DNA of 15,652 nt from an uncultured bacterium (GTDB taxonomy: Bacteria; Nitrospirota; Thermodesulfovibrionia; Thermodesulfovibrionales; JdFR-86). The first letter of the stretch is position 1. Every line of letters begins with the position of its first letter. Where the stretch lies: contig CBDVCR010000071.1 in NCBI GenBank assembly GCA_965372535.1, positions 1 to 15,652 of the forward strand, given 5' to 3'. Made by a program: the position numbers and the translations under genes. Below are positions 1,065-15,652 of the stretch, piece after piece. The notes under the pieces were generated by a model, which was not told the DNA's origin, did no database searches, and saw nothing but the letters and a program-made list of their open reading frames with translations.

Positions 1065-1067
1065 AAC

Positions 1068-2072: not shown

Positions 2073-2126
2073 CAGATTCTACCTCGCTTCATGCGTTGCG
2101 TTAAATGCTTCATAGCCCCAGGAACC

Positions 2127-2642
2127 CTATCCATGGCTCTCCTCCCGTCTGTCGAGCAAGTTGGCCTTTCTGAGCAGCATGTAAAGGTTCCGCTTCATCT
2201 CATCTTCCTTGACCCTGTTGATGGCCTCGCGGCACTCCGTATAGATGTCAAAGGAGACGAGAGCCATCTCCTCGACGATGGAATCCAGCCGTTCGAGCGC
2301 CCCGGCGTTTCCGACTGACCCCTCTTCGTACACCTCTTTTACGGCCTTTTTAAGAAGGAACGCGAATGACACGGCCCGGGAGGGAGGGAAGTCCTGTACA
2401 GCCCGCATCCTGACGAAAGGCTTAAGGCAGGCCGAGAGCCGCTCCGGGTCGGCCCCATCCTGGAGATCCCCAAGCACGGAATCCACCATTTCGGAAATGG
2501 CGTACCCAATTGGATTGGCGAAACGGTCTTTCTTTTTCCTGAGAAACGCTTCGGAGTCTGCGGGATAAGTCTCTACAATCAATTGATGCCATTTCCGGCG
2601 GATTTCCTCTTTGTTCAGGACTAAAAACTCTTTAAATTCCAA
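2127..2642 (-). CDS. dsrT: RsbRD_N-domain protein, DsrT-like (small conserved protein found upstream of dsrMK)
   Basis: 171-aa ORF using a TTG start at 2642..2640, preceded by GGAGGAG at 8 nt spacing. The sequence ...RKWHQLIVETYPADSEAFLRKKKDRFANPIGYAISEMV... matches my memory of the RsbRD N-terminal family (the d-F-x-N-P-v-G motif). Its position between dsrC and dsrM fits DsrT. The symbol is assigned from memory and context, not from a search. Confidence 0.55.
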   Translation of the reverse strand: MEFKEFLVLNKEEIRRKWHQLIVETYPADSEAFLRKKKDRFANPIGYAISEMVDSVLGDLQDGADPERLSACLKPFVRMRAVQDFPPSRAVSFAFLLKKAVKEVYEEGSVGNAGALERLDSIVEEMALVSFDIYTECREAINRVKEDEMKRNLYMLLRKANLLDRREESHG

Positions 2643-2693
2643 TATCGAAACTCCTCCCCTTACCTTTTTCGAGCCGCGCGACCGCCAACGTAA

Positions 2694-2734
2694 GGCCGCG
2701 GATAAAGGCCGCGGTACGTCCTTTATCCGCGGCC
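2694..2734 (-). terminator. Perfect 15-bp stem-loop between dsrC and the dsrT-like gene (attenuator, partial terminator or mRNA stabiliser)
   Basis: GGCCGCGGATAAAGG (2694-2708) and CCTTTATCCGCGGCC (2720-2734) are exact reverse complements separated by an 11-nt loop. The structure lies 17 nt downstream of the dsrC stop. No U-tract follows on either strand, so it is not a textbook intrinsic terminator. Confidence 0.4.
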
Positions 2735-2750
2735 GTCAGTGCCCTGTGTC

Positions 2751-3086
2751 TTATACGCAACCCGTGGGCTTCGGAAGTCCCGCATACCTGCAGGCCTGCT
2801 TCGCAGGGCCGCCGGGATAGAGCTCGTAGAGGTACTTGGTGTTGCCCTTTTCGGGGCCCATCACCTTGCCTATCTCCTTGACGAGTATCTTGATCATCGG
2901 GGCAATCTGGTACTTCTCGTAGTATTCCCTGAGGAAGTTGATGACCTCCCAGTGGGCATCGGTCAGGCTAATGCTGTCCTCGTTGGCAAGCTCCTGGGCA
3001 AGTTCCTTGCTCCAGTCATCGAGGTCTACCAGATACCCGTCGTCATCGACTTCAATCTGCTTTCCCTGAAAATCCATTGTCGGCAT
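2751..3086 (-). CDS. dsrC: DsrC (TusE/DsrC/DsvC family) with both redox-active C-terminal cysteines
   Basis: 111-aa ORF ending ...PAKQACRYAGLPKPTGCV. The penultimate Cys and a second Cys ten residues upstream mark a bona fide DsrC rather than TusE/RspA. The internal HWEVINFLREYY motif is present. A strong GGAGGAG RBS lies 7 nt upstream of the ATG. Confidence 0.92.
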   Translation of the reverse strand: MPTMDFQGKQIEVDDDGYLVDLDDWSKELAQELANEDSISLTDAHWEVINFLREYYEKYQIAPMIKILVKEIGKVMGPEKGNTKYLYELYPGGPAKQACRYAGLPKPTGCV

Positions 3087-3523: not shown

Positions 3524-4942
3524 TCAATCGACCCTCATGAAATAGCCGCCCCTCCGGGTATCCCCCCACCCCTTGAGGTCCCCTGTCACGGCATGCACCC
3601 CGCCGAAGTAAACCTCTTTTTCCCGCCACGGGTTAAGAGGGTATTTCCCCCGGACAGCGCGCAGGGCGTCCTCGCCGAAGCCCGGCTCCAACTGCAGCAC
3701 CCCCTCGTCGTCCAGGTGCATCCTCGGGGCCTCGACCGCACGGGCCGCGTCCATCCCCCTGTCCAGGAGGTTATGGATAACCTGAAGCATCGCTGTCTTA
3801 ATCCTCTTGCTCCCGCCGCTTCCGAGCACCGAGTGGATTTCCCCGTCCTTCTTTATAATTGTGGGAGACATCATGGAGCCCACCCTCGCCCCAGGCACGG
3901 TGGTGAAGAACCCGTGGGGGAAGAGGTCGTCCTCGCCCATCATGTTGTTGAGCATGACACCCGTATCCCCGAGAAAATGCCCGGAGTTCGAGCCGTTTGA
4001 CGAGGTCATTGAGACGGCGTTCCCCGCCCCGTCCACCACGCTCACATGCGTGGTGCCCGCGGCCCCCTGCCTTTCCCTGTTCATCCTCGCCATGGTTTCC
4101 GCCAGCAGCAGGCAGGCCTCCGCCTCGTCCATCCGCTCAATCTCCTCATTTTTAAGAAGCGAGAAGGCCGTCTCAAGCAACGCGCCGCCGAAGGAGGGAG
4201 GGGGATTAAAAAGCATCTCAAACCCCCTGTACGCGCACGAAAGCGGCCTTCTCTTTCTCACTTCGTACTCCCGCAGGTCCCTTGCCGTAACGCGCCCGCC
4301 GCCAGGTCTTAACTGCTCCTCAAGCCGGTGGGCGCCGCTTCCGTAAAACGCGTCAATCCACGCATCGGGCGACCTCAAGCCCAGGAACTCACCAAACAGG
4401 GGGTTATAGAGCCTCCCGCCGCTTTCCTTGCCGCCGAAAATCTCCTTTCCATAGCCGGTAACCGTGAGGATGGGCAAGAGGATTTTAATGAGATAGCTCT
4501 GAAGCCCGTCTAACTCGACCCCCTGCTCAAGGTACCTGAGGGCCGGCCGTATGATGTCCCGGATGTCCATGGAGGCGAGCTCCCGGTGAAACCTTAAAAG
4601 CCCCTTGAGCATTCCAGGCGCCGCCACGGAGGCCGTGCCGATATGGAAGACCTGTACGGTGGACTTAAACCGTATCTCCACGGGTTCGAGCACGGGTGTT
4701 TCCGAAAAAGACGCCCCCCTGCCCGGTGCGTCCACGAAGAAATCATAGACCACGTCCTCGCCCCGGTCGGCGACATGGGCCATGAGAAACCCCCCGCCCC
4801 CGAGGCTTGAGAGGACGGGCTCCGCCACCACGGAGGCGAATCCCGCCGCAACAGCCGCGTCGAAGGCGTTTCCGCCCCTCCTGAACATCTCGCACGCCGC
4901 CCCGGTGGTAAGGGGATGCCCGGAAGCCGCCGCCCCTTTCAT
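3524..4942 (-). CDS. ggt: Gamma-glutamyltransferase family protein (Ntn hydrolase), no signal peptide visible
   Basis: 472-aa ORF. The N-terminus GHPLTTGAACEMFRRGGNAFDAAVAA matches the GGT N-terminal signature. GTTHVSVVDGAGNAVSMTSSNG matches the autoprocessing/nucleophile Thr region, and GSGGSKRI matches the C-terminal oxyanion region. The protein starts directly with the catalytic domain and has no hydrophobic leader. Confidence 0.85.
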   Translation of the reverse strand: MKGAAASGHPLTTGAACEMFRRGGNAFDAAVAAGFASVVAEPVLSSLGGGGFLMAHVADRGEDVVYDFFVDAPGRGASFSETPVLEPVEIRFKSTVQVFHIGTASVAAPGMLKGLLRFHRELASMDIRDIIRPALRYLEQGVELDGLQSYLIKILLPILTVTGYGKEIFGGKESGGRLYNPLFGEFLGLRSPDAWIDAFYGSGAHRLEEQLRPGGGRVTARDLREYEVRKRRPLSCAYRGFEMLFNPPPSFGGALLETAFSLLKNEEIERMDEAEACLLLAETMARMNRERQGAAGTTHVSVVDGAGNAVSMTSSNGSNSGHFLGDTGVMLNNMMGEDDLFPHGFFTTVPGARVGSMMSPTIIKKDGEIHSVLGSGGSKRIKTAMLQVIHNLLDRGMDAARAVEAPRMHLDDEGVLQLEPGFGEDALRAVRGKYPLNPWREKEVYFGGVHAVTGDLKGWGDTRRGGYFMRVD

Positions 4943-5040
4943 CTACCGGCCGGTTAGTTTCTCAGCAGACATTGAATCCTTCCAAAGCCCCCTGCACTGG
5001 GATTCCGAGGCATTTACATGTCTGCTTGCCGGCGGTCCCG

Positions 5041-6153
5041 TCAGCAAGCGTAAAACCCCTCCCGGACGCAGGCTATCATGGACTTGAAATCCCTTTCCTC
5101 CCTGTATAGCCTTTGTTGGGCGTGAGCCCCGGTGCCGTTTTCAAGTATTTCCCCTATTGCACCCATGTACCCGAGCCCCCCGAGTTCTCCGGACTGCCGC
5201 TCTACCAGGTGTAAGAGTTCCTGTACCGCCTCCCGGATGGGGACCCTTTTTGCGGTCACGGGGTTTACGAATATCCCGTCAAGGCCGTAGCGCGCCGCCT
5301 GCCACTTGTTGGACCTCAATATCTGCATCTGCACCCTTGCCTCGGGGTGAAACTGCACGTTTGAAAGCGTGACCACAAGGGCCTGGATAAGCGCGGTAAG
5401 AGCCAGAATCTCGGCGTAACGGCAGGGCATATCACATACCCGTACCTCTACGGTGCCGAACTCCGGGTGCGGACGCACGTCCCACCAGAGGTCCTTTACG
5501 GACTCTATTATCCCTCCCATCTGAAGCAGCGAGGCCATGCGACAGAACTCGTCCCAGTTTTCGAGGGAATCCGGCAGGCCCGCAAGCGGCAGGGCCTCAA
5601 AGAGCTTTGTCCTGTAGGAGTAAAGCCCCGTGTCCTCGCCCAGGTAGAAAGGAGAGGAGGTGGAAACGGCAAGCAGGAGGGGCAGGTACATCCGGATAGT
5701 GTTGTTTATCCTTATTGCCCGCTCCGGAGAGTTGACCCCTATGTGCACATGCAAGCCCTGGCTTATAAACCTTCTGCCCACAAGCTGAAGGTCGTCCATA
5801 ACCCTGACGTATCGCGGGCTGCTGGTGACGTTTTCCGCCGAGCCCCCCTCGAAGGGGTGGAGGCTTGCGGAGTAGAAGACCGCGCCGAAGTTTTTTAATA
5901 GTCCCTCAAGGTAGGAGAGCGTACTCCGCAGGTCGGCGTCCACCTCCTTGACGTCGGCGCAGATACGGGTGTTTACCTCTATCATGGAACGGATGAACTC
6001 TTCCTTTATGCGGTCCGTATAGGCGGGGTCCATTGAAGACAGCACCTCGGGCGCGATGTTCTTAAACCAAAGAGTTCCGGCGTCCAGGAGCTGAAGCTCG
6101 AGTTCCACCCCGATGGTGGGCTCGGGGCTTGAGTTAAACCTTAACTCGGGCAC
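5041..6153 (-). CDS. Carboxylate-amine ligase, YbdK / glutamate-cysteine ligase family 2 (GCS2)
   Basis: 370-aa ORF. PTIGVELELQLLD near the N-terminus, GLHVHIG, and the overall length are typical of YbdK-type GCS2 enzymes. Its start overlaps the upstream M20 gene by 20 nt. Confidence 0.8.
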   Translation of the reverse strand: MPELRFNSSPEPTIGVELELQLLDAGTLWFKNIAPEVLSSMDPAYTDRIKEEFIRSMIEVNTRICADVKEVDADLRSTLSYLEGLLKNFGAVFYSASLHPFEGGSAENVTSSPRYVRVMDDLQLVGRRFISQGLHVHIGVNSPERAIRINNTIRMYLPLLLAVSTSSPFYLGEDTGLYSYRTKLFEALPLAGLPDSLENWDEFCRMASLLQMGGIIESVKDLWWDVRPHPEFGTVEVRVCDMPCRYAEILALTALIQALVVTLSNVQFHPEARVQMQILRSNKWQAARYGLDGIFVNPVTAKRVPIREAVQELLHLVERQSGELGGLGYMGAIGEILENGTGAHAQQRLYREERDFKSMIACVREGFYAC

Positions 6154-7369
6154 GTTTTTCCTTCAGGCTTTCGACGGCCCTCCTTACGGCGGCGTCGAAA
6201 AAGGCCGCACCGACGCGTATCACGTCCTCATCGAAGTTGAAGTTCGAGCTGTGGGCCGTGGCGGACTCCCCGCCCCTGCCCACTGCGCCGAAGCGTACGA
6301 AACAGCCGGGCACTTCCTTAAGATAGTAGGCGAAATCCTCCCCTCCCATGCTGGGCTTTACCAGGTTGATGAACTTCTCCCTGCCGAGCAGTCCCTCCGC
6401 CGCTTCCCGTGCGAGCAGGTAGCATTCGGGATGGTTAACCACCGGAGGGTAACCCTCGAAAATATTCACCTCAATCCTTGCGTCATGGAGCGATGCCATC
6501 CCCTCGGCGGTCTTCTGAATTCTTTTGAGCACGTCTTTTCTGGTCTTTCCATCGGTATTGCGTACTGTGCCCTTGAGGACGGCCTCGTCGGCCACCGCGT
6601 TGTAAACAGTGCCGGCATGGAGGCTCCCGACGGTTATCACCGTGGGGTTCAGGGGGTTGATGCTCCTTGAGATGATGTTCTGAAGGGCCATCACAAAAAG
6701 GCTCGCCACCACGACTGCGTCCACGGTTTCGTGGGGCCGGGCGGCGTGCCCCCCCCGTCCGAGTATCCTTATCTCGATGGCGTCGGTATAGGAGGAGTCC
6801 ACGTCCGTCCGTATGGCGATTTCTCCCAGTTTGAACGCGCCGTCGATATGTCCGCCGAATATCATGTCCACGCCGTCGAGCGCGCCCGCCTCTATCATGG
6901 AGCGTGCGCCTCCGCTTCCCTCCTCGGCGGGCTGAAAGAGCAGTACCACGTTGCCGGGCGGCGGGGATTTCCTGAGAAGCTCCGCGGCGCCGAGCACGAT
7001 GGCCACATGGCCGTCATGCCCGCAGGCGTGCATGTAGCCTTTTACCCTGGAGGCGTAGGGGAGACCTGTCTTCTCCTCGATGGGCAGGGCGTCCATGTCC
7101 GCCCTTAGGGCCACGGTGGGCGCCGGGGGACCGTGGTTGTCGATGCGGGCCACTATGCCGGTCTTTGCGATGCCGCGCCTGTAGGGGATGGAAAGCCTCT
7201 CCAGATACCTGGCGATGGCCTCGCCGGTCTTTTTCTCCTTGAAGGCGGGCTCGGGCCAGCGGTGAATTCTCCTCCTGAGACTCACAAGGCGTTTAAACGT
7301 CCTGTCGTCCATCAAGCGCTTAAAGGGCATAATAAATTTTAGCACATGCGGGGGGATTAAAAGAGGCAC
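6134..7369 (-). CDS. M20-family (M20D-type) amidohydrolase / N-acyl-amino-acid or dipeptide hydrolase
   Basis: 411-aa ORF with LRRRIHRWPEPAFKEKKTGEAIARYL, MHACGHDGH and FQPAEEG metal-binding motifs. The start is uncertain: GTG at 7369 or ATG at 7330 (MPFKRLMDD...), and neither has a clear SD. Confidence 0.8.
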   Translation of the reverse strand: MPLLIPPHVLKFIMPFKRLMDDRTFKRLVSLRRRIHRWPEPAFKEKKTGEAIARYLERLSIPYRRGIAKTGIVARIDNHGPPAPTVALRADMDALPIEEKTGLPYASRVKGYMHACGHDGHVAIVLGAAELLRKSPPPGNVVLLFQPAEEGSGGARSMIEAGALDGVDMIFGGHIDGAFKLGEIAIRTDVDSSYTDAIEIRILGRGGHAARPHETVDAVVVASLFVMALQNIISRSINPLNPTVITVGSLHAGTVYNAVADEAVLKGTVRNTDGKTRKDVLKRIQKTAEGMASLHDARIEVNIFEGYPPVVNHPECYLLAREAAEGLLGREKFINLVKPSMGGEDFAYYLKEVPGCFVRFGAVGRGGESATAHSSNFNFDEDVIRVGAAFFDAAVRRAVESLKEKRARVKV

Positions 7370-7417
7370 GCGCAGGTTTACCCGCAGCCGTCAATGCATT
7401 GCAAAAATACAAAATAT

Positions 7418-7448
7418 TTGCCCGTAAACCGGTTGAATCATTTATAAT
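7418..7448 (+). promoter_or_regulatory. Possible sigma70 promoter for the rhodanese gene
   Basis: TTGCCC (7418-7423) is followed after 18-19 nt by TATAAT (7443-7448). The CDS start lies 23 nt further on. The spacer is slightly long. Confidence 0.3.
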
Positions 7449-7470
7449 ATGATGATGGGGAGGTAGCCGG

Positions 7471-8088
7471 TTGGGCCTTTTCGACATATTCGGAAACATC
7501 AGGACCATCAGCGTTGAGGAGGCGCGCAAGAAGCTCGAAGCCTCGAATAACGGAGAAGTGGCCCTCCTCGACGTCCGGGAGCCCAAGGAATACGCCCAGG
7601 GCCACATCAAGGGCGCGCGGCTCATGCCCCTGAGCCAGCTGGTGCAAAGGACAGAGGAACTCGACCCCTCAAGGCCCGCCATCGTTTACTGCCGCGTGGG
7701 CAGGCGCAGCGGGCCCGCCGCCTCGATACTCGGAAATTCCGGCATGAGCTCCGCGATAAGCCTCGAAGGGGGCATCGAGGCATGGAACGGAAACACTTTC
7801 TCATGCGGCATGGAGCCGGGCGTGTTCCCGCTCGACGGGAAAGACCCCGTGGAGGAGTTGCTCTCCGTCGCCTGGGCGCTTGAGGGCGGCACGTGCGAGT
7901 TTTACGAAAACGTAAGGGAAACCCTCAAGGACAATGAGGCCGGAGTGGTCTTCGGCGCCCTTATAAACAGCGAGCGGAAGCATAAGGACACCCTTAATAG
8001 AGGCATACGGAAAATACTCGACAGACGCCGGCGAGAGCGCAATAAAGGAATCTTCCGGAGCGTTCCTCAAAAGCGGAGCAAACCTTGA
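7471..8088 (+). CDS. Rhodanese-domain sulfurtransferase fused to the first half of a ferritin/rubrerythrin-like domain; the ORF as it stands ends in out-of-frame Arg-rich sequence
   Basis: TTG start with GGGGAGG 7 nt upstream. LLDVREPKEYAQGHIKGARLMP and the active-site loop CRVGRRS form a canonical rhodanese. FGALINSERKHKDTL looks like an ExxH ferritin-like helix. After about codon 175 the frame reads NRGIRKILDRRRRERNKGIFRSVPQKRSKP, which looks non-native. Confidence 0.75.
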   Translation: MGLFDIFGNIRTISVEEARKKLEASNNGEVALLDVREPKEYAQGHIKGARLMPLSQLVQRTEELDPSRPAIVYCRVGRRSGPAASILGNSGMSSAISLEGGIEAWNGNTFSCGMEPGVFPLDGKDPVEELLSVAWALEGGTCEFYENVRETLKDNEAGVVFGALINSERKHKDTLNRGIRKILDRRRRERNKGIFRSVPQKRSKP

Positions 8089-8299
8089 GAAAGCCCTCGG
8101 ATGGCTCGGGGCGCCGGAAAGGACAGCCCTGGACATACTGGAACTCTGTCTCCAGCTTGAGGCGAACGCCCTTGACCTTTACATGAAAATCATCCGGCGC
8201 ATCGACGAACCGGCCACAAAAGACGCGCTCAACCAGGTGCTGGAGGAGGAAAAAACACACCTGATGAGCATCGGGAAACTCCTGCAGAGCGTGCTTTAG
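7997..8299 (+). pseudogene. Out-of-frame (+1) continuation of the rhodanese/ferritin-like gene
   Basis: The frame beginning at 7997 reads IEAYGKYSTDAGESAIKESSGAFLKSGANLEKALGWLGAPERTALDILELCLQLEANALDLYMKIIRRIDEPATKDALNQVLEEEKTHLMSIGKLLQSVL* with the stop at 8297-8299. It has protein-like composition and a second E..E..H-type helix, but no start codon of its own. Skipping nt 7996 joins ...ERKHKDTL to IEAYGKY..., giving a 275-aa protein. Confidence 0.6.
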
Positions 8300-8311
8300 C
8301 CCGGCTTTCTC

Positions 8312-9481
8312 TTACCCCCCTTTTTCGGGCGCGTACCGAAACACCGCGGCCAGCGGCGCATCCACCGGCATTTTTTCGCGGGCAACAGCGTAAACAGTCC
8401 CGCGGTTTAGAAGCGTTCGGACCGCGGCCAGGTCCAGGAGGTCCTCCTTTTCAGGACCTTCTTCGGGTTCAAGGCTCACCGTGTCTGTTTCGGGGTCGTA
8501 TCTGCCCCACTCTTGCTCGCCAGAAGCGGCAAACAGCACATCTACACTTCCGGCGGAAGCGGCCGGGACAACGACGTTTATGTCCGTAGAAGCATGCCCG
8601 GTGCCCAGAAGCTCCCTGCAGCGCGCCGCAGCCTCCTCGCGGGCCTTGAGAAAAAGGGGCTCCACCACGGCCCATGCCTCCTTGTGCAGACGTTCCGCGC
8701 CCGCCCTTTCCGGGTTGCCCGCCACCCCCCTGTCAACGAGATAGGGGTATGTGTTCGCCTCCCGGTATATCGCGTTGATATACTCGACGCCCGCCAGGAC
8801 CAGGAACGAGTGTTCTTCCTTGAGAAGTTCGTGCAGGCCCCTGTCTACATGGCGGCAGAATCTCAGTACAGCGTCCTTTTCGTCATCCACGCCGACACCG
8901 TGGCCGTGGAACATGGCGGGCCGCTGCCGCATTCCCCCTCCCGTGCCCGTATGAAACTGGAGCTGTTTCTGAGGGTCGTCGTATTTCAGGGCGTCGGCAA
9001 GGCTTTTCGGTACGTCTTTAAGAGACGCCTCGGCCATGCTGTATCGGGAGCCCTGAAACAACCTGACCCCGTTCTGGCTTAGCGCAAGGAGATAGAATCG
9101 CCCGTCCCCGCTGAACAGGGGGAGCAGCGGCTTGAGGTGGAAACGCCGGCCCGGGACAAGCAGTTCTTCAAAGCTCATGGGAAGACGGTAACGGCGGAAT
9201 TCCCCGGCCGAGGCGAACACGGCCAGCCCATCGCTCCTGTGCTCCCAGAAATCCCTGTCGCCCAACAGCATGTGGCCGGGCCTCAGCATCTCTCCGGCCT
9301 CGGCGGAGCGGAGGCCGCCTTCCAGCAGAAGCCCTTCGGCCCGCGAGAGCAGATTTTTGAACCTTACCGGGTCCTGCTCCGCCCCGCCGCCCGTCCTGTG
9401 CGTGGGCATGTAAATCGATATGCATCGGCCGCCGCTTCCTCCCGCAAGCGCCCTCAGGTCATTGATTCCCAGCATATCCAT
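8312..9481 (-). CDS. Conserved hypothetical protein, probably a bacterial archaeo-eukaryotic release-factor-like (baeRF / eRF1-fold) family member
   Basis: 389-aa ORF with good coding character. The N-terminal CISIYMPTHRTGGGAEQDPVRFKNLL and the central FYLLALSQNGVRLFQG pattern match my recollection of baeRF-family proteins. No search was run, so the family call is tentative. Confidence 0.4.
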   Translation of the reverse strand: MDMLGINDLRALAGGSGGRCISIYMPTHRTGGGAEQDPVRFKNLLSRAEGLLLEGGLRSAEAGEMLRPGHMLLGDRDFWEHRSDGLAVFASAGEFRRYRLPMSFEELLVPGRRFHLKPLLPLFSGDGRFYLLALSQNGVRLFQGSRYSMAEASLKDVPKSLADALKYDDPQKQLQFHTGTGGGMRQRPAMFHGHGVGVDDEKDAVLRFCRHVDRGLHELLKEEHSFLVLAGVEYINAIYREANTYPYLVDRGVAGNPERAGAERLHKEAWAVVEPLFLKAREEAAARCRELLGTGHASTDINVVVPAASAGSVDVLFAASGEQEWGRYDPETDTVSLEPEEGPEKEDLLDLAAVRTLLNRGTVYAVAREKMPVDAPLAAVFRYAPEKGG

Positions 9482-9580
9482 AATCCGCCCGCCCTTCCGC
9501 TCGATAACAGCACTGTCTTTTCTAACTCTATCACCTTTTAAGCAACTTTATAAGCACCCGCCAGCAGCGGTGTCCTCCGG

Positions 9581-9596
9581 AGCAAATGCCACGCCA
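9581..9596 (-). promoter_or_regulatory. Sigma54-type -24/-12 promoter motif facing the baeRF-like gene
   Basis: The minus strand reads TGGCGTGGCATTTGCT. GG and GC are at the canonical spacing of the consensus TGGCACG-N4-TTGCW, and TGGC and TTGC are both intact. The motif lies about 100 nt upstream of the ATG at 9481. A match of this quality is expected by chance roughly once per few tens of kb, so location is the main support. Confidence 0.35.
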
Positions 9597-9883
9597 GACT
9601 CATAACCCGGATATTGCACGAGTCCGGTTTGCCTCGGACGCAAGGCGCGCGGGACGCGAAGGAGGACATCCATGATAAGTAAACGAGCATCGCACCTTGC
9701 GCGGTGCTCGTCTTCGCGGGCGGGGCATCTCTGTCAATCACTGCTTGAGCGCCCCGCGCTCTGAGGCGACCTCTCACTGACGGAAAACGGCGCCGTCTCG
9801 ATGTTTGCTGCAGGGGGCCGAGGCATATTTTTTTTACCTCGATAGATTTGTTATACTTATTCATCTTACTTAAGGAGTTTCGA

Positions 9884-11275
9884 ATGTCCCGGTTAAAACT
9901 CATAGGTTCAGCTCTGACGGTATGCGCTCTGGTGCTGATGCGGCCCGCTCCCGGTGCGGCGATAAGCGAAACGAGCGACGAATATTCCTTCAAAATCACT
10001 GTCGAAACCCACCTCGGGGAGCACCTCAAGTCCGTGCTCACGGACATCGCCGGCTCCGACGACATCATCGTCATAGTCAACGCGGAGGTGGAAACCGACA
10101 AGAAGAGCAAGAAGAAAAAGCGTAAAAAACCCCAGGGCCTCGTGCTTCCCGGCGTCCCGGTTAAGAAGGAAATCGGCAAGAGCGCGGACGAGGCAATGGC
10201 CATTGCAAGCATGGTGCGGAGGCTTGAGGTGGAAATCCTGGTGGACAACGACATTTCCGAGTCCCTCACCCAACTCGCCCACGACATCGCCATCTCCGTC
10301 ATCGGATACGACCCCGACCGGGGCGACAGGCTCACCATCAGGCGAATTGAGTTCGGAAACAAGGGATTTAAGTGGGCCTCGATGTTTTACCCGCCCCACC
10401 TGTACTGGCTTGTTACGCTTATAGCGGGCGGCTTCTTCCTGGTGTCGGCGGCCATGTTCTTCATGGACCCGTTCAAGAAACTGCCGCCCGCCGTGGGAAA
10501 CGTAAACTGGGACGTCATACTCAAGAACCCGGAGAATAAGATGTTCGGCGGAGGCCCGGCAGGCGCGCCGGCAGCGGCCCGGACAGCCAAGGCGGAAACC
10601 ATGGCCGGCAGCGGCGACCCGTTGCCCTTCGGGTTCATAAAAGACGGCCACGTCCCCGACCTGGCCTTCCTGCTTTCGGAAAGCCCTGCCGGGGACATCG
10701 CCATCGTGGCCAACTACCTGGAGCCGGACCTCTCCGCAGGGCTTCTTGAGTCCTTCCCCCCGGAGACCTATGCCGAGGTCGTACTCAAGCTTAAGGACAC
10801 CGCCGAGGCCGGCCCCGAAAGGGTGAAAGCCCTGGAGGAGTCCATCAGGGAGCGCCTGGACTACGTGGTGGGCGGCGACGACAAACTTGCTTCCGTCCTC
10901 AACCTTGCCGAGGGCGAGGTCAGGGACAAGGTGCTCCAAAAGCTCGAAGAGGAGGACCCGGAGGCCGTCGCCCGCCTGAGGCCGAAGATAAAGACCTTCG
11001 AGTCCATGCTGAGGTCCATGAAGCCCAATGTCCTTCAGGCCCTTTTCAGGCAGCTCGACACCACGGTGTTCGCCCGCGTCCTGAAGTCCTCCTCGGCCGA
11101 CATACAGACCAGGGTGCTGGAGTCGCTGAGCGAAGGGGCCGCCGAACTCCTGCGGGAGGAGATGGAACTGAGCCGTCCCCTGAGCGCCGCGCGCCTTAAG
11201 AAGGAAAAGCAGAACATCGCGGCCACCGTCATGCGGATGGCGAGTGTGGGCGTCATAGAGGAGGAAGACATCTGA
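9884..11275 (+). CDS. Membrane-anchored FliF-like (ring-building motif + TM) / FliG-like (middle + C-terminal torque domain) fusion protein
   Basis: The start is placed at ATG 9884 (AAGGAG 6 nt upstream), not the TTG at 9848 in the track. It begins with an N-terminal hydrophobic leader, MSRLKLIGSALTVCALVLM. The periplasmic part ends VRRLEVEILVDND...ISVIGYDPDRGDRLTIRRIEF, which resembles the FliF RBM3 end (G-f-x-x-x-RGD-x-l-x-V-x-x-x-x-F). That is followed by a TM helix, LYWLVTLIAGGFFLVSAAMFFM. Next come FliG_M-like LAFLLSESPAGDIAIVANYLEPDLSAGLLESFPPETYAEVV and FliG_C-like GGDDKLASVLNL...LEEEDPEAVARLRPKIKTFESML...LQALFRQLDTTVFARVLKSSSADIQTRVLESLSEGAAELLREEMELSRPL...VGVIE. Confidence 0.75.
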   Translation: MSRLKLIGSALTVCALVLMRPAPGAAISETSDEYSFKITVETHLGEHLKSVLTDIAGSDDIIVIVNAEVETDKKSKKKKRKKPQGLVLPGVPVKKEIGKSADEAMAIASMVRRLEVEILVDNDISESLTQLAHDIAISVIGYDPDRGDRLTIRRIEFGNKGFKWASMFYPPHLYWLVTLIAGGFFLVSAAMFFMDPFKKLPPAVGNVNWDVILKNPENKMFGGGPAGAPAAARTAKAETMAGSGDPLPFGFIKDGHVPDLAFLLSESPAGDIAIVANYLEPDLSAGLLESFPPETYAEVVLKLKDTAEAGPERVKALEESIRERLDYVVGGDDKLASVLNLAEGEVRDKVLQKLEEEDPEAVARLRPKIKTFESMLRSMKPNVLQALFRQLDTTVFARVLKSSSADIQTRVLESLSEGAAELLREEMELSRPLSAARLKKEKQNIAATVMRMASVGVIEEEDI

Positions 11276-11276
11276 G

Positions 11277-12059
11277 ATGGACTTTATGACCGTTTTCGGC
11301 CTTCTGATGGGCGGCGCGACCATGTTCTTCGTCATGGCCGAGGGGAATATCCTGAACATGATAATCAACCCCCTGGCTTTCATCCTGGTGTTCGGAGGCA
11401 CTTTCAGCGCCACGCTCATCTCCTATCCCTGGGACATCGTAAGGCGGATAATCCCTTCCCTGAAAACGATGTTCGTAAAAACCGGAAACGGCAGCGAGCA
11501 CCGGGAGGACCTCATAGAGCAGATTACCAGGCTGGCCGAGAAGGCCCGCCGCCAGAATATCGAGAGCCTTCAGGAGGACGTGGCTTCCATAAACGACGGT
11601 TTTCTGGCCTACGGCATCCAGATGGTGCTGGACGGCCTCGAGCACGAAGTCGTGAAGGACAACCTGGAAAAGGAGATACTTTTCACTCAGCGCTCCCGGC
11701 GCAAGGTCAGCGACGCGTTCCGCACCATGGCCACCTTAGCGCCCATTTTCGGGCTGCTGGGGACCCTCATCGGCGTGGTGCAGGTGCTCAGGAACCTCTC
11801 GGACCCCACCAGCATGGGCGAGGCCATGGCCATCGCCATAACCACCACCTTCTACGGCATTTTCGCGGCCAATTTTCTCTTTCTGCCCGCCGCCATAAAG
11901 CTCAACGAGAACAACGAAGACGAAGTGATGAACTGGCAGATTGCGGCCGAGGGCATATTGTCCATCCAGCAGGGCGACCTCCCGCTGATAGTGAGGAAAA
12001 AACTCAACGCTTTCCTGCTTAAAAGCCTCGGCCGCGAAGGTGGGACCCGAAAAGACTGA
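11277..12059 (+). CDS. motA: MotA/PomA-family stator channel protein
   Basis: 260 aa with a four-TM layout. The cytoplasmic loop KARRQNIESLQED has an R..(8)..E spacing like MotA R90/E98. TM3/TM4 carry the conserved prolines (LAPIFGLLGT, FLFLPAAIKL). The ATG lies 1 nt after the upstream stop. Confidence 0.85.
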   Translation: MDFMTVFGLLMGGATMFFVMAEGNILNMIINPLAFILVFGGTFSATLISYPWDIVRRIIPSLKTMFVKTGNGSEHREDLIEQITRLAEKARRQNIESLQEDVASINDGFLAYGIQMVLDGLEHEVVKDNLEKEILFTQRSRRKVSDAFRTMATLAPIFGLLGTLIGVVQVLRNLSDPTSMGEAMAIAITTTFYGIFAANFLFLPAAIKLNENNEDEVMNWQIAAEGILSIQQGDLPLIVRKKLNAFLLKSLGREGGTRKD

Positions 12060-12724
12060 TGAAGCTGTTCATCCCGGAAAACAGGAGGCGTGGGGGCGCG
12101 CTTTGGCTTGTCATATTTTCCGACCTTTCGACGAACCTCATGCTCTTTTTCCTTATTCTCTTCGCCATGACCAGGATGAGTGCCGCCGAGCGCGAGACGG
12201 TGATAGAGGGCATGCAGCGGGCGACCTCCAACCAGGCCGCCCTTGAGGAGCGGGCTTTGAAAAAACAGAAGGAAAAAAACGCCATAAGGACGCTCGAGGA
12301 CACCATTGCCTACGGCAGGCTGAAGAAATACACGAACCTCTCCGTGGGCGACGATAAAATCAAGCTGACCATAGAACTGCCGTTTTTCTTCGCCACCGGG
12401 AGCGCGGAAATCAACGCCGCCGCCCGTCCGGCCCTCAAAAGCCTCGTGATCCCCATTAAAGAGTTCCCCAACGACATAATCATAGAGGGCCATACCGACA
12501 ACGTGCCCATGACTGCGGGCCACAGGTACGGCTCGAACTGGGAGCTCTCGGTGGCCCGCGCCGTCAGCGTTATAAACTTCTTCAAGGAAAAGGGGGTCAA
12601 CCCCGCAAAGCTGGTCTCGGGCGGCTACGGGGAGTACCACCCGGCGTTTCCGAACGACACCCCCCGGAACAGGGCGAAAAACAGGCGCATAGAAATCACC
12701 ATTCTCCGGCAACCTGCGGTGTAG
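12059..12724 (+). CDS. motB: MotB/PomB-family stator protein with OmpA-like peptidoglycan-binding domain
   Basis: The start overlaps the motA stop (TGATG). The single N-terminal TM, WLVIFSDLSTNLMLFFLILFA, carries the conserved channel Asp. The C-terminal region IIIEGHTDNVP...SNWELSVARA...NRRIEI is a canonical OmpA/MotB domain. Confidence 0.85.
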   Translation: MKLFIPENRRRGGALWLVIFSDLSTNLMLFFLILFAMTRMSAAERETVIEGMQRATSNQAALEERALKKQKEKNAIRTLEDTIAYGRLKKYTNLSVGDDKIKLTIELPFFFATGSAEINAAARPALKSLVIPIKEFPNDIIIEGHTDNVPMTAGHRYGSNWELSVARAVSVINFFKEKGVNPAKLVSGGYGEYHPAFPNDTPRNRAKNRRIEITILRQPAV

Positions 12725-12730
12725 GGCAAA

Positions 12731-13381
12731 GTGGCGCTCCACCGAAAAGTACTCAACATCCTCGTAGGGGGAAGGCCGGAGCCCATGAGCTGGCTGCTCC
12801 CCCACAGCACCCTTATGCTCGTCCTGATGATACTGTTCGTGGCCCTGTTCAGTTACTCCTACCTGAACTCGGTCGAGTACGAGTCCGCCCTTGTAGACCT
12901 GGAGACGCCGAAGGCCGAGTTGAGCCCTTCCAAAAGGGAAATCCACCTCGCCAAGAGCATCAGGAAGTTCATCGAAGACATGGGCATGGAGGGCGTCGCC
13001 AGCGTTAACGTGACTCCCCACGCCATAAAGCTCAAGCTTTCAAGCCCCGTGATGTTCGAAAGCGGGAGCGCCGAGCTTACGCCCTTCATCATGCCCATGC
13101 TTGTGGAACTCCTCAGGCACCTGAGGGACATGGAAAACACCATAATCGTGGAGGGACACACCGACAACGTGCCCATACACAGCGCCCTTTACCGCTCCAA
13201 CTGGGAGCTCTCGGCCGCAAGGGCCTTCAGCATAATATATTTTTATATAAAGAGAGACATCGAGCCGGAACGCCTCATCGCCCACGGCTACGGAGAGCAC
13301 AGGCCGTTTTACTCCAACGAGAGCGAGTTCGGGCGCGCCATGAACCGGCGGATAGAGATAACAATCGTAAGGGGAGGATAA
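12731..13381 (+). CDS. Second MotB/OmpA-like protein, with a TM segment that lacks the channel Asp
   Basis: 216 aa with a GTG start 6 nt after the motB stop; an alternative ATG lies at 12785 (MSWLL...). The TM is WLLPHSTLMLVLMILFVALF and has no acidic residue. The C-terminal region IIVEGHTDNVP...SNWELSAARA...NRRIEI is an OmpA-like domain. Confidence 0.8.
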   Translation: MALHRKVLNILVGGRPEPMSWLLPHSTLMLVLMILFVALFSYSYLNSVEYESALVDLETPKAELSPSKREIHLAKSIRKFIEDMGMEGVASVNVTPHAIKLKLSSPVMFESGSAELTPFIMPMLVELLRHLRDMENTIIVEGHTDNVPIHSALYRSNWELSAARAFSIIYFYIKRDIEPERLIAHGYGEHRPFYSNESEFGRAMNRRIEITIVRGG

Positions 13382-13382
13382 A

Positions 13383-14684
13383 GTGAAGGCAGCACTTGCA
13401 GCCGTATTAACAATGCTCCTGCTTTCCTGGGCGGCGCCGGCCGCCACGGCCCGGGAGACAGGGGGAAAAGCCGGGAAGGCGCGGGACATGGCCGTGAGCC
13501 TCTTCAACCAGGGCAAATACGAGGAGGCCCTTCCACTGTTGAAAGAGATTCTCTCGGAAAACCCCGACGACAAGGTCGCACAGAGGTACCTGCTTATTTA
13601 CAATCAGCAGGTCGTCGAGCCCTACTGCAGGCAGGCGGCCCAGTCCTACTTTGCCGGAGACTACCCTTCCGCGGTCACCCAGTGGGAGAAAATCCTCCGG
13701 ATAAACCCCAACGACATGCGCGTCCGGAAGCTCCTGGACAGGACGATTACCGTCTCCAACCAGGAAGCCCTGGACTCCCTCTACTCCAACGTGACCACGC
13801 TTATGAAGGACAGTAGATACGCCCTGGCAGCGGGCGAACTCGAAAAAATCCTCCAGATAAGGCCCCTTGAGCAGCGGGCGCATGAACTGCTGTCCATAGT
13901 GCGCCGCACCCTTACGGACAGCGCCGTTAAAGAGCTATACGAAAAAGCCAACCAGTATTTCGAGCAGAAGGAATACGACCTCGCCATCGAGCAGTGGCGG
14001 AAGATACTGGAGGTAGACCCGGGCCAGGACCTGGCCTCCCGGCAGATTGCCACCGTGCACCGCCGAAAGCTCGACAAGATGTACACCACAGCCGAACGGC
14101 TCTACCTCGAAGGCGACCTCGCCGCCTCCCGCGACCTCTACAGCAATATTCTTTCCGAAAACCCCACCGACCTTTCCATTAAAAAAACCATAGACCGCCT
14201 CAACGGGACGATAAACATCGTGCCCAGGCTTACTGAGGAGGGGAAGGTCTGGGACGTGCTCAGAAAGGGCGTCGCCCACCACGTCTCGGAGGACGGAAAC
14301 CCCAGGGTGGCCGTTGCCGCCGCCTGGTATGCCGTGCAGCTTGAGCCGGAAAACGCCACGATACTGGCGCTCATGGACCACATGGAGCGGGAAAACTTCG
14401 CCGTCGTCCGCACAATGGCGCCCCCGGTGGACGAGATGAACGTCGTGGACCAGTACCTTTTCACCGCCCTCAACAACATCTACGAGGGCCGCTACGACCT
14501 GGCCGTCCAGGAGTGCGGGATTGTGCTCGAACTCGAGCCGGAAAACATCCTGGCCATGAAGCGCCTGGGCTCGGCCTACTACGCCCTCGGCAGAGCGGGC
14601 AAGGCCAAGAAAGCCTGGCAGAAGGCGCTCAGGCTCTCGCCCAACGACAGCGAACTCAAGGGCTTCATAAAACAGCTCCGGTAA
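13383..14684 (+). CDS. Secreted tetratricopeptide-repeat (TPR) protein
   Basis: 433 aa. The GTG start lies 1 nt after the upstream stop and GGGGAGG lies upstream. The signal peptide is MKAALAAVLTMLLLSWAAPAATA. Repeated 34-aa style A-x-x-Y/F...A...P-N/D helices run throughout (e.g. GKYEEALPLLKEILSENPDD, GDYPSAVTQWEKILRINPND, KEYDLAIEQWRKILEVDPG, GRAGKAKKAWQKALRLSPND). Confidence 0.8.
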   Translation: MKAALAAVLTMLLLSWAAPAATARETGGKAGKARDMAVSLFNQGKYEEALPLLKEILSENPDDKVAQRYLLIYNQQVVEPYCRQAAQSYFAGDYPSAVTQWEKILRINPNDMRVRKLLDRTITVSNQEALDSLYSNVTTLMKDSRYALAAGELEKILQIRPLEQRAHELLSIVRRTLTDSAVKELYEKANQYFEQKEYDLAIEQWRKILEVDPGQDLASRQIATVHRRKLDKMYTTAERLYLEGDLAASRDLYSNILSENPTDLSIKKTIDRLNGTINIVPRLTEEGKVWDVLRKGVAHHVSEDGNPRVAVAAAWYAVQLEPENATILALMDHMERENFAVVRTMAPPVDEMNVVDQYLFTALNNIYEGRYDLAVQECGIVLELEPENILAMKRLGSAYYALGRAGKAKKAWQKALRLSPNDSELKGFIKQLR

Positions 14685-14874
14685 GGGGCTCGCCGCCCAG
14701 GAGGTCGATTTCCGCGACGCCGATTTCAAGGAGGGTTTCAGCGAGCTTTTCAAAATCCCCGATTTCGATATCCGCATGTGCCTCTACTCCCCGGGTAAAG
14801 CAGAAACCGCACGCCCGGTCGCAGCGCAGGGTGGGGTAGAGCTGGACGAAACGGGGCCTGCCGGGCGTTGTCAT
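14665..14874 (-). pseudogene. Radical SAM enzyme N-terminal stump (69 codons), truncated
   Basis: The ORF reads MTTPGRPRFVQLYPTLRCDRACGFCF...EIDLLGGEPL. It has the CxxxCxxC cluster motif and the GGEPL motif of radical SAM proteins, but stops 5 codons later, inside the 3' end of the convergent TPR gene. It is far too short for a TIM-barrel radical SAM domain, and there is no SD. Confidence 0.6.
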
Positions 14875-14899
14875 GTGTTATTATCGTGAAAGGCATCGC

Positions 14900-14935
14900 A
14901 AAAAGTAAAAGGGTTGCGGGAGCAACCCGCAACCC
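14900..14935 (-). terminator. Strong rho-independent terminator (minus strand), directly downstream of the tRNA-end fragment
   Basis: GGGTTGCGGG (14911-14920) and CCCGCAACCC (14926-14935) form a perfect 10-bp GC-rich stem with a 5-nt loop. On the minus strand the stem is followed by TTTTACTTTTT (14910..14900). Confidence 0.65.
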
Positions 14936-14947
14936 CTTGATATCTTA

Positions 14948-14969
14948 TGGTGGCGCTGAGCGGGCTCAA
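14948..14969 (-). other. tRNA 3'-end-like fragment (T-loop remnant + T-stem + acceptor strand + discriminator + CCA); putative island attachment-site remnant
   Basis: The minus strand reads TTGAGC-CCGCT-CAGCGCC-A-CCA, which parses as part of a T-loop, a 5-nt T-stem 3' strand, a 7-nt acceptor 3' strand, a discriminator and an encoded CCA. The expected 5' partner strands (AGCGG, GGCGCTG) are absent upstream, so it is not an intact tRNA. Confidence 0.45.
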
Positions 14970-15062
14970 GGAACTCTTGAACCACAAGACGCTGAATATG
15001 ACTCTCTGATATGCTTATCCGGCTCCGAGCCACAAGGTCAAGTGTGGGGGTGCTGAATTATG

Positions 15063-15068
15063 TATAAT
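15063..15068 (+). promoter_or_regulatory. TATAAT -10 box only 5 nt before the GIY-YIG ATG (possible leaderless transcript)
   Basis: The sequence is TGTATAATTTTACATG. The hexamer is perfect, no SD lies between it and the ATG at 15074, and no convincing -35 is present. Confidence 0.25.
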
Positions 15069-15073
15069 TTTAC

Positions 15074-15652
15074 ATGAAGGAAATTACTCTATATGGTCCA
15101 TATTCAATTGTAAGTTCTGATCATGACATACTTTCTGATTGCCCATACTCTCAAAAGGCGGGGATATATTTGTGGGCTGTGAAAATGTTTTCAAATTATT
15201 TCAGAGTAACATACATCGGAGAGACCGGTACTTCATTTTATAAAAGAACCAAAGAGCATGTAATTCAAACGTTGGGGGGTAATTATCAAATATGTGATCC
15301 CGATGCAATGCAAAGAGGTGAATCTATAGTTGTATGGAATGGTTTATGGAGAAAAGGTTATAGGGACAAGTTTCCTGAGTTTTTGAGAAGATATGAGGGT
15401 ATTGCTACAGTGATAAAAGGTGCTCTCAGTGTCCAAAATATCTTTGTAGCTCCTATGGATGTGGATTCAAGGACACGTAAGCGTATCGAAGGTGCTTTAG
15501 CCTTTGCTGTAAGAAATAATAAAGATGCATCGTCTTTGCTTCCCAAAGACATTCGATACTTCAAGAATAAAGAAGATGAGAGTCCAATCGCTATAAGCAT
15601 CGAAGCACAATCGAAAATTGAAGGGCTGCCAAGGCAAATAATATGTGTGTAA
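15074..15652 (+). CDS. GIY-YIG nuclease-superfamily-like protein in low-GC, probably foreign DNA
   Basis: 192-aa ORF ending with TAA at the window edge. AGIYLWAV...RVTYIGETGTSFYKRTKEH supplies the GIY ... YIG pair and the following conserved Arg. A later RIEGALAF could supply the catalytic Glu. GC in hand-counted lines is 32-43%, against 60-70% for the rest of the window. Confidence 0.55.
   Translation: MKEITLYGPYSIVSSDHDILSDCPYSQKAGIYLWAVKMFSNYFRVTYIGETGTSFYKRTKEHVIQTLGGNYQICDPDAMQRGESIVVWNGLWRKGYRDKFPEFLRRYEGIATVIKGALSVQNIFVAPMDVDSRTRKRIEGALAFAVRNNKDASSLLPKDIRYFKNKEDESPIAISIEAQSKIEGLPRQIICV

Follow-up and report, generated by a model that had tools for sequence, protein, structure and literature searches.

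Five adjacent genes at positions 9884 to 14684 of a 15,652-nucleotide stretch of DNA from an uncultured bacterium of the phylum Nitrospirota (contig CBDVCR010000071.1; the whole stretch is hereafter the window) encode parts from both sides of the torque-generating interface of the bacterial flagellar motor: a rotor protein that fuses a FliF-type ring domain to the middle and C-terminal domains of FliG, a MotA, two MotB paralogues (MotB1 and MotB2) and a tetratricopeptide repeat (TPR) protein. We hypothesise that this cassette specifies an autonomous, flagellum-independent rotor-stator machine, driven by the proton motive force (PMF) and put together from the flagellar motor's torque-generating core, a proposal that we consider moderately probable. 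The best reading is of a module that either derives from the flagellar motor or shares its origin, and that probably energises an envelope process which varies by lineage. To our knowledge, every use of FliG and a FliF ring lies inside a flagellum, and every non-flagellar relative of MotAB (Tol, Ton, Gld, Agl and Zorya) works without a rotor ring. All parts of the cassette are known, and there is a substantial chance that their combination is a distinct class of machine.

The genes lie on the forward strand and are tightly packed, just as a reading of the DNA alone (the original prediction) had described. Gene 1, the rotor protein (9884-11275; 463 amino acids), is separated by a 1-nt gap from gene 2, MotA (11277-12059; 260 amino acids), which overlaps gene 3, MotB1 (12059-12724; 221 amino acids), in the sequence TGATG; a 6-nt gap then leads to gene 4, MotB2 (12731-13381; 216 amino acids, with ATG 12785 as a possible other start instead of GTG 12731), and a 1-nt gap to gene 5, the TPR protein (13383-14684; 433 amino acids). 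The parts list given for the five genes is borne out by Pfam, in which all of the domains lie above the gathering score.

In gene 1 the Pfam matches are FliG_C (6.3e-18), FliG_M (9.9e-10) and YscJ_FliF_C (1.7e-7). The original prediction had staked itself on the recovery of FliG_M and FliG_C and had described this protein as a fusion of FliF and FliG; its FliG half stands, whereas the FliF half proves to be a single domain of the ring-building motif 3 (RBM3) type and not a whole FliF. From the N- to the C-terminus the protein comprises a signal or transmembrane helix, a periplasmic domain of the FliF RBM3/collar type (residues ~31-157), a transmembrane helix (172-194), a linker of ~50 residues and the middle and C-terminal domains of FliG (FliG-MC; 248-459). 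In a PDB sequence search residues 248-459 align end to end with the crystal structure of Thermotoga maritima FliG-MC (1lkv; 4.8e-23), beginning at a common PFSF motif at the onset of the FliG middle domain, and an alignment of 38 sequences of the rotor family shows the Gly-Gly hinge of the FliG part to be invariant.

An AlphaFold2 model of gene 1, built on 38 homologues, has a predicted local distance difference test score (pLDDT) of 75.6 and places an alpha-beta-(35-residue low-confidence loop)-beta-alpha-beta fold in the periplasm, after an N-terminal hydrophobic helix. When the model was compared with the PDB using Foldseek, FliG-MC came top (1e-9) and the second tier consisted of RBM3/collar S-ring structures of Salmonella and Vibrio FliF (3.9e-5 to 7e-4), among them 7bk0_B at 3.9e-5 and 6sd1_A, 8z5v_A and 8z4d_1 with a target-normalised TM of ~0.6; SpoIIIAG and PrgK ranked much weaker. 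An invariant LVLPGVP motif sits in the inter-strand loop that interrupts the RBM, which is the position of the beta-collar in FliF. Pfam gave no FliG_N match in gene 1, and AlphaFold2 and Foldseek recovered one RBM of ~125 residues, of the RBM3/collar type, with no RBM1 or RBM2 and hence no full FliF; the NCBIfam model for fliF (TIGR00206) reaches 28 bits against a cut-off of 129.75. In flagella the FliF-FliG joint is normally non-covalent and is made by FliG_N docking on the FliF C-terminus. The domain matches and the modelled anatomy together indicate that in gene 1 a FliF S-ring domain in miniature is covalently linked to FliG-MC.

Gene 2 has the features looked for in a stator A subunit, namely MotA_N and MotA_ExbB (1.9e-24) in Pfam, the torque-interface arginine in an ARR motif and two channel prolines, with the motif and the prolines conserved across orthologues. 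The NCBIfam models for MotA, PomA and MotP match it at 1e-50 to 1e-51 and that for TolQ at 0.0086, and its best relatives in the PDB are flagellar MotA (6.8e-46) and PomA (2e-37). Since its NCBIfam score of 173 falls under the equivalog cut-off of 340, it is a divergent member of the flagellar MotA type. On these rankings the A subunit is of the flagellar type, and a Tol/Ton identity, which was considered, is ruled out by them.

To compare the two faces of the interface, the residue numbers of Escherichia coli MotA and FliG were placed on the family alignments from what we take to be the E. coli sequences. One published study gives two charge pairs, MotA R90 with FliG D289 and MotA E98 with FliG R281 (PMC7564593). 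In the cassette the acidic pair equivalent to D288/D289 is kept in the FliG torque helix, as EE in the window, and the MotA arginine side is kept too; in distant members the pattern of interface residues is imperfectly correlated.

MotB1 has the anatomy of a stator B subunit: a transmembrane helix with the channel aspartate (FSDL), a plug region (MotB_plug, 41.5 bits) and an OmpA-like peptidoglycan-binding domain (64.8 bits), and in an alignment that includes E. coli MotB the aspartate is present in every MotB1 orthologue. MotB2 also matches OmpA and MotB_plug in Pfam (the latter at 25.9 bits, cut-off 24). It had been described as an Asp-less paralogue, and this is confirmed, as HSTL in MotB2 aligns to FSDL in MotB1 and the aspartate is gone in all of the Nitrospirota orthologues, where the position is threonine (serine in one locus) within a strongly conserved transmembrane helix. 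In an Elusimicrobiota locus (L028), MotB2 retains the aspartate (PYADLM), and in another locus (L029) it has asparagine. In a distance tree the Elusimicrobiota B1 groups with the Nitrospirota B1 and B2 with B2, and because the two make separate clades across phyla the duplication is an old one. By these alignments, the aspartate of MotB2 has been lost in at least two lineages, by a different substitution each time. The pattern of loss fits a B1/B2 heterodimer within one MotA pentamer, in which one aspartate would suffice; it is also conceivable that MotB2 is a pure anchor. The proposed parallel between the Asp-less protein and MotY, however, has to be given up, as MotB2 has a transmembrane helix to itself and is a full-length MotB paralogue of ancient origin, and its loss of the aspartate is specific to lineages.

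Gene 5 matches multiple TPR families in Pfam, with no match to Sel1, and the PDB search returned generic TPR matches only. A strong ribosome-binding site, AGGGGAGGA, stands in front of its start codon, GTG 13383. Its N-terminus, read by eye, has a signal-peptide-like segment (AAPAATA|RE), and for this reason the protein is probably periplasmic. The TPR gene occupies fifth place in every complete Nitrospirota locus, as it does in the Elusimicrobiota locus L028. A C-terminal TPR motif was considered as the mark of one orthologous partner across subfamilies and was dropped, being the plain TPR consensus.

The arrangement recurs well beyond the window. A word-indexed search with gene 1 returned ~40 full-length relatives, the named ones being Nitrospirae or Nitrospirota metagenome-assembled genomes (MAGs), and placed the nearest canonical FliG at 5e-15. 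A scan of one genome per GTDB species gave 15 loci, of which 14 bear the title of a Nitrospirota MAG and the other (L018) that of an uncultured bacterium. When the window's five proteins were used as tblastn queries, all five genes were found in the same order in every distinct genome locus long enough to show them (15 of 15), which is far from chance, and the order also occurs in further metagenome loci; protein identity across loci is 35-64%. Carriers include the Thermodesulfovibrionales families BMS3Bbin05 and UBA6898 and the class UBA9217 (PMC11033732 supplement), and CP070669.1 (2.29 Mb) is among the whole carrier genomes. In three loci (L003, L015 and L017) the cassette genes are split into several open reading frames (ORFs) by frameshifts in long contigs; these look like long-read assembly errors and not pseudogenisation, because all five genes are affected and are otherwise conserved.

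An exhaustive profile search for the rotor yielded, at E<=1e-30, 285 clusters (at 50% identity). Of the 150 best, nearly all cover profile positions from about 10 to 470 and therefore have the fused architecture, with lengths of 430-735 amino acids; a search with MotA gave more than 120 clusters at 54% identity or above, bearing names of the same kinds. The rotor family falls into at least 34 subfamilies, in three of which the named members are Elusimicrobiota or Endomicrobiales, annotated as 'FliG C-terminal domain-containing protein' or 'tetratricopeptide repeat protein'. All five genes recur in unchanged order in the Elusimicrobiota MAG locus L028, whereas L029 (29% GC) has genes 1 to 4, after which come a histidine kinase, an AmiC-type amidase and MurI. 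The comparison of neighbourhoods that the original prediction had called for thus finds one conserved unit across Nitrospirota and Elusimicrobiota, and a system put forward from this one genome is not unique to it but belongs to a large family. By these comparisons its invariant core is the rotor, MotA and the MotB protein or proteins, usually accompanied by the TPR protein.

Genes of a conventional flagellum were sought in annotated flanks reaching up to 10 kb on each side, covering the 15 loci for which there are Pfam tables and, in L016, the ten largest flanking ORFs; the loci of the genome scan, L004-L018 other than L016, were compared against one another only. No flagellar family besides the cassette's own occurs in any annotated flank, or in Pfam among the other large ORFs of the window. 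No FliM/FliN family is present in the window or in any annotated flank, and no gene for export apparatus, rod, hook or filament turns up in any of the flanks that were examined. The claim that the cassette stands without other flagellar genes therefore holds for the window ORFs and the annotated flanks, in which there is no adjoining flagellar regulon. The suspicion that it is a non-flagellar envelope machine is strengthened by three results together: the recovery of FliG_M and FliG_C, flanks free of flagellar genes and a unit conserved in two phyla.

There is one trace of such genes in the literature searched. A preprint on magnetotactic Elusimicrobiota remarks that most free-living members of the phylum have no flagellar structural proteins and nonetheless possess many homologues of motAB and fliG, the role of which it calls 'unclear' (bioRxiv 10.1101/2022.07.08.499144). 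In our searches the Elusimicrobiota proteins carry FliG-like annotations and lie inside the cassette, and they may be products of the genes that the preprint mentions. Full-text searches, including searches with the identifiers of carrier genomes, found no description of a non-flagellar FliG/FliF-MotAB system apart from this remark. A paper concerning the Nitrospirota carriers (PMC10203281) contains no statement on their flagella, and a recent survey of MotAB relatives does not discuss a FliG/FliF-MotAB cassette in the passages that a keyword search brought up (PMC12505986).

We propose that the fusion protein would polymerise into a membrane ring, with the covalent link standing in for the contact between the FliF C-terminus and the FliG N-terminus. 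Such a linkage is mechanically acceptable, since FliF-FliG fusions made in the laboratory assemble efficiently into rings, and those of Salmonella are motile (PMC10941966). Pentamers of MotA that surround a MotB dimer, anchored to peptidoglycan, would conduct ions and push on the torque helix of FliG-C, so that the ring turns; the MotB dimer probably pairs B1 with B2, which leaves one active aspartate in Nitrospirota. The periplasmic collar of the ring and the TPR protein would then hand the work to a periplasmic or outer-membrane client, which appears to depend on lineage.

Candidates for such clients come from the neighbouring genes. Ten of the 15 distinct genome loci carry, 6-144 nt downstream of the TPR gene and in the same orientation, a gene for a protein of ~490 amino acids that has 19 CXXCH motifs and is itself followed by two six-haem proteins of ~265 amino acids; in an eleventh (L005) the same cytochrome set lies upstream of the cassette, and it also follows the cassette in a BMS3Abin07-type contig. 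The 19-haem protein reaches 195.5 bits against the NCBIfam DmsE decahaem family (cut-off 192.2), and each six-haem protein has two 'nanowire_3heme' c7 domains. These multihaem flanks (19-haem DmsE/GSU2203-like, six-haem c7 and others) lie at 3738-7138 and 14829-18219 of L016 and are also found in L004, L005, L007-L012, L014, L015 and L025. Also linked in Nitrospirota loci are a 13-haem MtrC-like cytochrome, an OmpA-cytochrome fusion (8-haem), NHL propellers and a sigma-54 response regulator with a histidine kinase, and in at least 10 loci a divergent RCC1/Lcl_C protein stands upstream of the cassette. The clade to which the window belongs (L019, which shares 85% protein identity with it, and L020-L022) has housekeeping neighbours only, and the Elusimicrobiota locus L028 has no cytochromes in its neighbourhood; the idea of cytochromes as a universal client was dropped on both counts. 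The cytochrome neighbours may be taken as a lead pointing to an envelope apparatus for extracellular electron transfer, in most Nitrospirota clades only, the window's clade having no linked client.

Two more distant loci have neighbours of another kind. In L026 (1-19481) a distant rotor relative comes after a 16,931-amino-acid ORF and a PorV-like (UPF0164) barrel fused to TPRs, and downstream of the rotor are MotA, one MotB, an 824-amino-acid coiled-coil membrane protein, another PorV-like barrel and a PilZ protein. In L027 (1-16145) the rotor relative has 672 amino acids and a C-terminal TPR extension on the cytoplasmic side; around it are type IX secretion system (T9SS)-type cargo (Por_Secre_tail/CHU_C), two PorV genes, a TPR gene directly upstream and a Roadblock/LC7 protein downstream, and an assembly gap hides the sequence that follows the rotor gene. 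The genes associated with the cassette are those of envelope or surface proteins, which differ by lineage. More tentatively, and as something that we would place a little short of an even chance, the cassette could represent a widespread class of flagellum-independent rotary machine, with a one-polypeptide rotor, MotA, a MotB1/MotB2 heterodimer and clients that vary by lineage (multihaem-cytochrome conduits in Nitrospirota, giant surface proteins or PorV-like barrels elsewhere), perhaps preserving or mimicking a state of the flagellar motor that preceded its secretion system.

Several observations weigh against the proposal of an autonomous rotary machine. The D288/D289-equivalent pair is the sole canonical charge feature of FliG to be kept: the position of R281 is an invariant glycine throughout the rotor family, and that of MotA E98 is Gln, Ala or Ser, with acidic residues at adjacent positions instead. 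With one canonical pair kept and the other rebuilt on both partners, the interface therefore differs from the canonical one, which suggests that the cassette has a private rotor-stator interface. The FliM-binding EHPQR motif is not kept, its EHPQ being ESPA in the window and the segment not conserved in the rotor family, and a FliG ring without FliM/FliN is floppy in flagella (PMC10941966). No output or axle protein was identified, and a universal function for the cytochromes is precluded by their absence from the clade of the window. For the Nitrospirota, flagellar genes were looked for in the flanks of the cassette, and the carriers may have true flagella as well. Finally, ring formation, ion conduction, rotation and output are all steps that we infer.

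If no rotation takes place, the same genes could specify a PMF-dependent energiser or tether of the envelope, in which MotA and MotB act like TolQR or ExbBD, the FliG-bearing protein is an adaptor, activator or brake that recruits or unplugs stators or senses load or ion flow, and the OmpA and TPR proteins hold the envelope together. The gene content does parallel Tol-Pal (a MotA-like and a MotB-like protein, an OmpA-like peptidoglycan binder and a periplasmic TPR protein), the second B subunit has repeatedly lost its aspartate, one distant locus (L029) lies among peptidoglycan enzymes and the torque-helix charges are conserved in part only. We nevertheless think this explanation unlikely, because the A subunit is clearly of the flagellar type, both in the contrast between its MotA/PomA and TolQ matches and in the PDB, and because one partner combines the fold that builds the MS-ring with exactly those FliG domains that receive torque, which would be hard to explain without a ring.

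Less likely still is that the genes are extra rotor and stator paralogues which serve a conventional flagellum encoded elsewhere, for example as an alternative stator set with its own docking ring. Several stator sets are common in bacteria, relatives in Thermodesulfovibrio are flagellated, and the Nitrospirota carriers were examined at the flanks of the cassette. However, without FliG_N, FliF RBM1/2 and the FliM-binding motif, gene 1 cannot replace FliG in a C-ring, and it brings a membrane ring domain of its own; the closest canonical FliG is 27-28% identical; the annotated flanks hold no flagellar gene; and the cassette is found in Elusimicrobiota, whose free-living members are reported to be mostly without flagellar structural genes. 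A Zorya-like anti-phage system on a MotAB-type motor is so improbable that we set it aside: the ZorB models of PADLOC match both MotB proteins (7.5e-23 and 3.6e-20), and a baeRF-family gene and a low-GC ORF lie nearby, but these ZorB matches reflect generic OmpA/MotB similarity, ZorA reaches 13.8 bits (E 0.0048) on a MotA of 260 amino acids that has no long tail, no ZorC/D/E-G was found, the cassette sits in a stable chromosomal synteny that varies with host lineage, unlike a defence island, and Zorya or another defence system was rejected on the PADLOC scan.

Immediately upstream of the cassette, positions 9849-9883 (forward strand) form a putative 5' control region, with an extended -10-like TGT TATACT at 9849-9857 and, as read from the sequence, a ribosome-binding site, AAGGAG, at 9872-9877 preceding ATG 9884 of gene 1. 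The stretch is also kept in L019, and TTTACA-type -35/-10 pairs turn up again upstream of the cassette in other loci, whereas a simple sigma-70 scan of the window did not flag the element; its assignment as a promoter is what we infer. A sigma-54 promoter upstream of gene 1, prompted by the adjoining sigma-54 activator in many loci, was rejected, there being no consensus in 23 loci. Downstream, a terminator-like scan found a 13-bp GC-rich hairpin at 14908-14938, with its T-run on the reverse strand, which is possibly the end of the transcription unit. No structured RNA was matched within the window using Rfam.

None of the window's other large ORFs has to do with motility, and the dsr and thiol-metabolism neighbours to which the original prediction drew attention are judged to be incidental. 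On the reverse strand, 1-3086 is a block of dissimilatory sulfur metabolism: a partial DsrK that runs off the left end (the long ORF at 39-1316 on the forward strand is its antisense shadow), a DsrM-like NarI-type protein (1068-2072), a protein with an RsbRD_N domain (2127-2642) and DsrC (111 amino acids, 2751-3086, assigned by synteny with L019). Genes for a gamma-glutamyltranspeptidase, a GCS2 carboxylate-amine ligase and an M20 peptidase follow in a row at 3524-7369, also on the reverse strand and syntenic in L019, and may be a small unit of gamma-glutamyl/thiol metabolism. Alignment of a 275-amino-acid rhodanese/rubrerythrin-like protein of L019 to the window shows that the rhodanese gene at 7471-8296 is apparently frameshifted (frame 1 to ~7995, frame 2 from 7994 to 8296), through either a sequencing error or decay to a pseudogene. 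Directly upstream of the cassette and divergent from it is a baeRF-family (release-factor-like) gene (8312-9481, reverse strand) that is kept in L019; in other clades the RCC1/Lcl_C protein takes its place. The DNA of the window and L019 is ~90% identical over 5050-14694, and their synteny stops 10 nt past the stop codon of the TPR gene. Within 14665-15652, a 69-amino-acid radical-SAM N-terminal fragment (CDRACGFC) on the reverse strand overlaps the TPR stop, and after the hairpin comes a low-GC (~40%) ORF of 192 amino acids with GIY...YIG-like motifs, without a Pfam or PADLOC match, which is possibly an inserted foreign gene.

Confirmation of a conserved minimal unit of rotor and stator would add a new branch to the ion-driven motors, and one that occurs across hundreds of sequence clusters, as well as in bacteria for which an absence of flagella is reported. 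With five genes, it is small enough to be reconstituted and could serve as a system for studying torque generation. It also bears on the origin of the flagellar motor, as rotor and stator can evidently exist without secretion apparatus, rod and filament, while the naturally Asp-less MotB2 offers a test of the model in which two aspartates alternate in 5:2 motors. The repeated DmsE-type and c7-type cytochrome neighbours suggest a mechanical component in extracellular electron transfer that has yet to be explored.

Among known systems, Zorya (ZorAB) resembles the cassette in having a MotAB-derived core outside the flagellum and differs in its ZorA tail and ZorC/D. The Tol, Ton, Gld/Por and Agl motors (TolQR-TolA-Pal-CpoB, ExbBD-TonB, GldLM/PorLM and AglRQS) likewise encode an ion-driven unit with periplasmic, OmpA-like or TPR partners; AglQ and AglS of Myxococcus gliding are two B-type subunits, as in the cassette, and the PorV-like barrels, T9SS-type cargo and giant surface protein beside distant rotor relatives recall the type IX system of GldLM/PorLM. 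These motors, however, pass energy on through an elongated periplasmic protein and have A subunits of the TolQ, ExbB or GldL type and no FliG/FliF ring, whereas the A subunit of the cassette is of the flagellar type; the Pfam matches of its five proteins include no TolA/TonB family and no GldL/GldM family. Like the Vibrio T-ring (MotX/MotY) and Campylobacter PflA/PflB, the cassette encodes an OmpA-like peptidoglycan binder and a repeat protein with its stator, and a scaffolding role is therefore possible. MotY has no transmembrane helix or plug-like region, whereas MotB2 has both and is a true MotB paralogue, and gene 5 is without Sel1, so that on the features of MotX and MotY, as distinct from their sequences, the cassette does not encode a T-ring.

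The closest likenesses are to the flagellar motor itself. Engineered or spontaneous FliF-FliG fusions of Salmonella and Vibrio show that a covalent link permits rings to assemble and torque to be transmitted (PMC10941966; their structure 8z4d was among our matches), but these are full-length laboratory proteins (~945 amino acids) in a complete flagellum, whereas the rotor of the cassette is natural and dispenses with half of each partner. Compared with the flagellar motor core, the cassette has FliF and FliG in one polypeptide and two MotB paralogues, and is without FliG_N, RBM1/2 and the FliM-binding motif, as well as nearby genes for FliM/N, export apparatus, rod, hook and filament; its equivalent of R281 is glycine, its E98 position is uncharged, and its family extends into a phylum reported mostly to lack flagella. 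What it shares with that core is the RBM3/collar domain, FliG-MC with its Gly-Gly hinge and acidic pair, a MotA of the flagellar type and a MotB with its aspartate, plug and OmpA domain.

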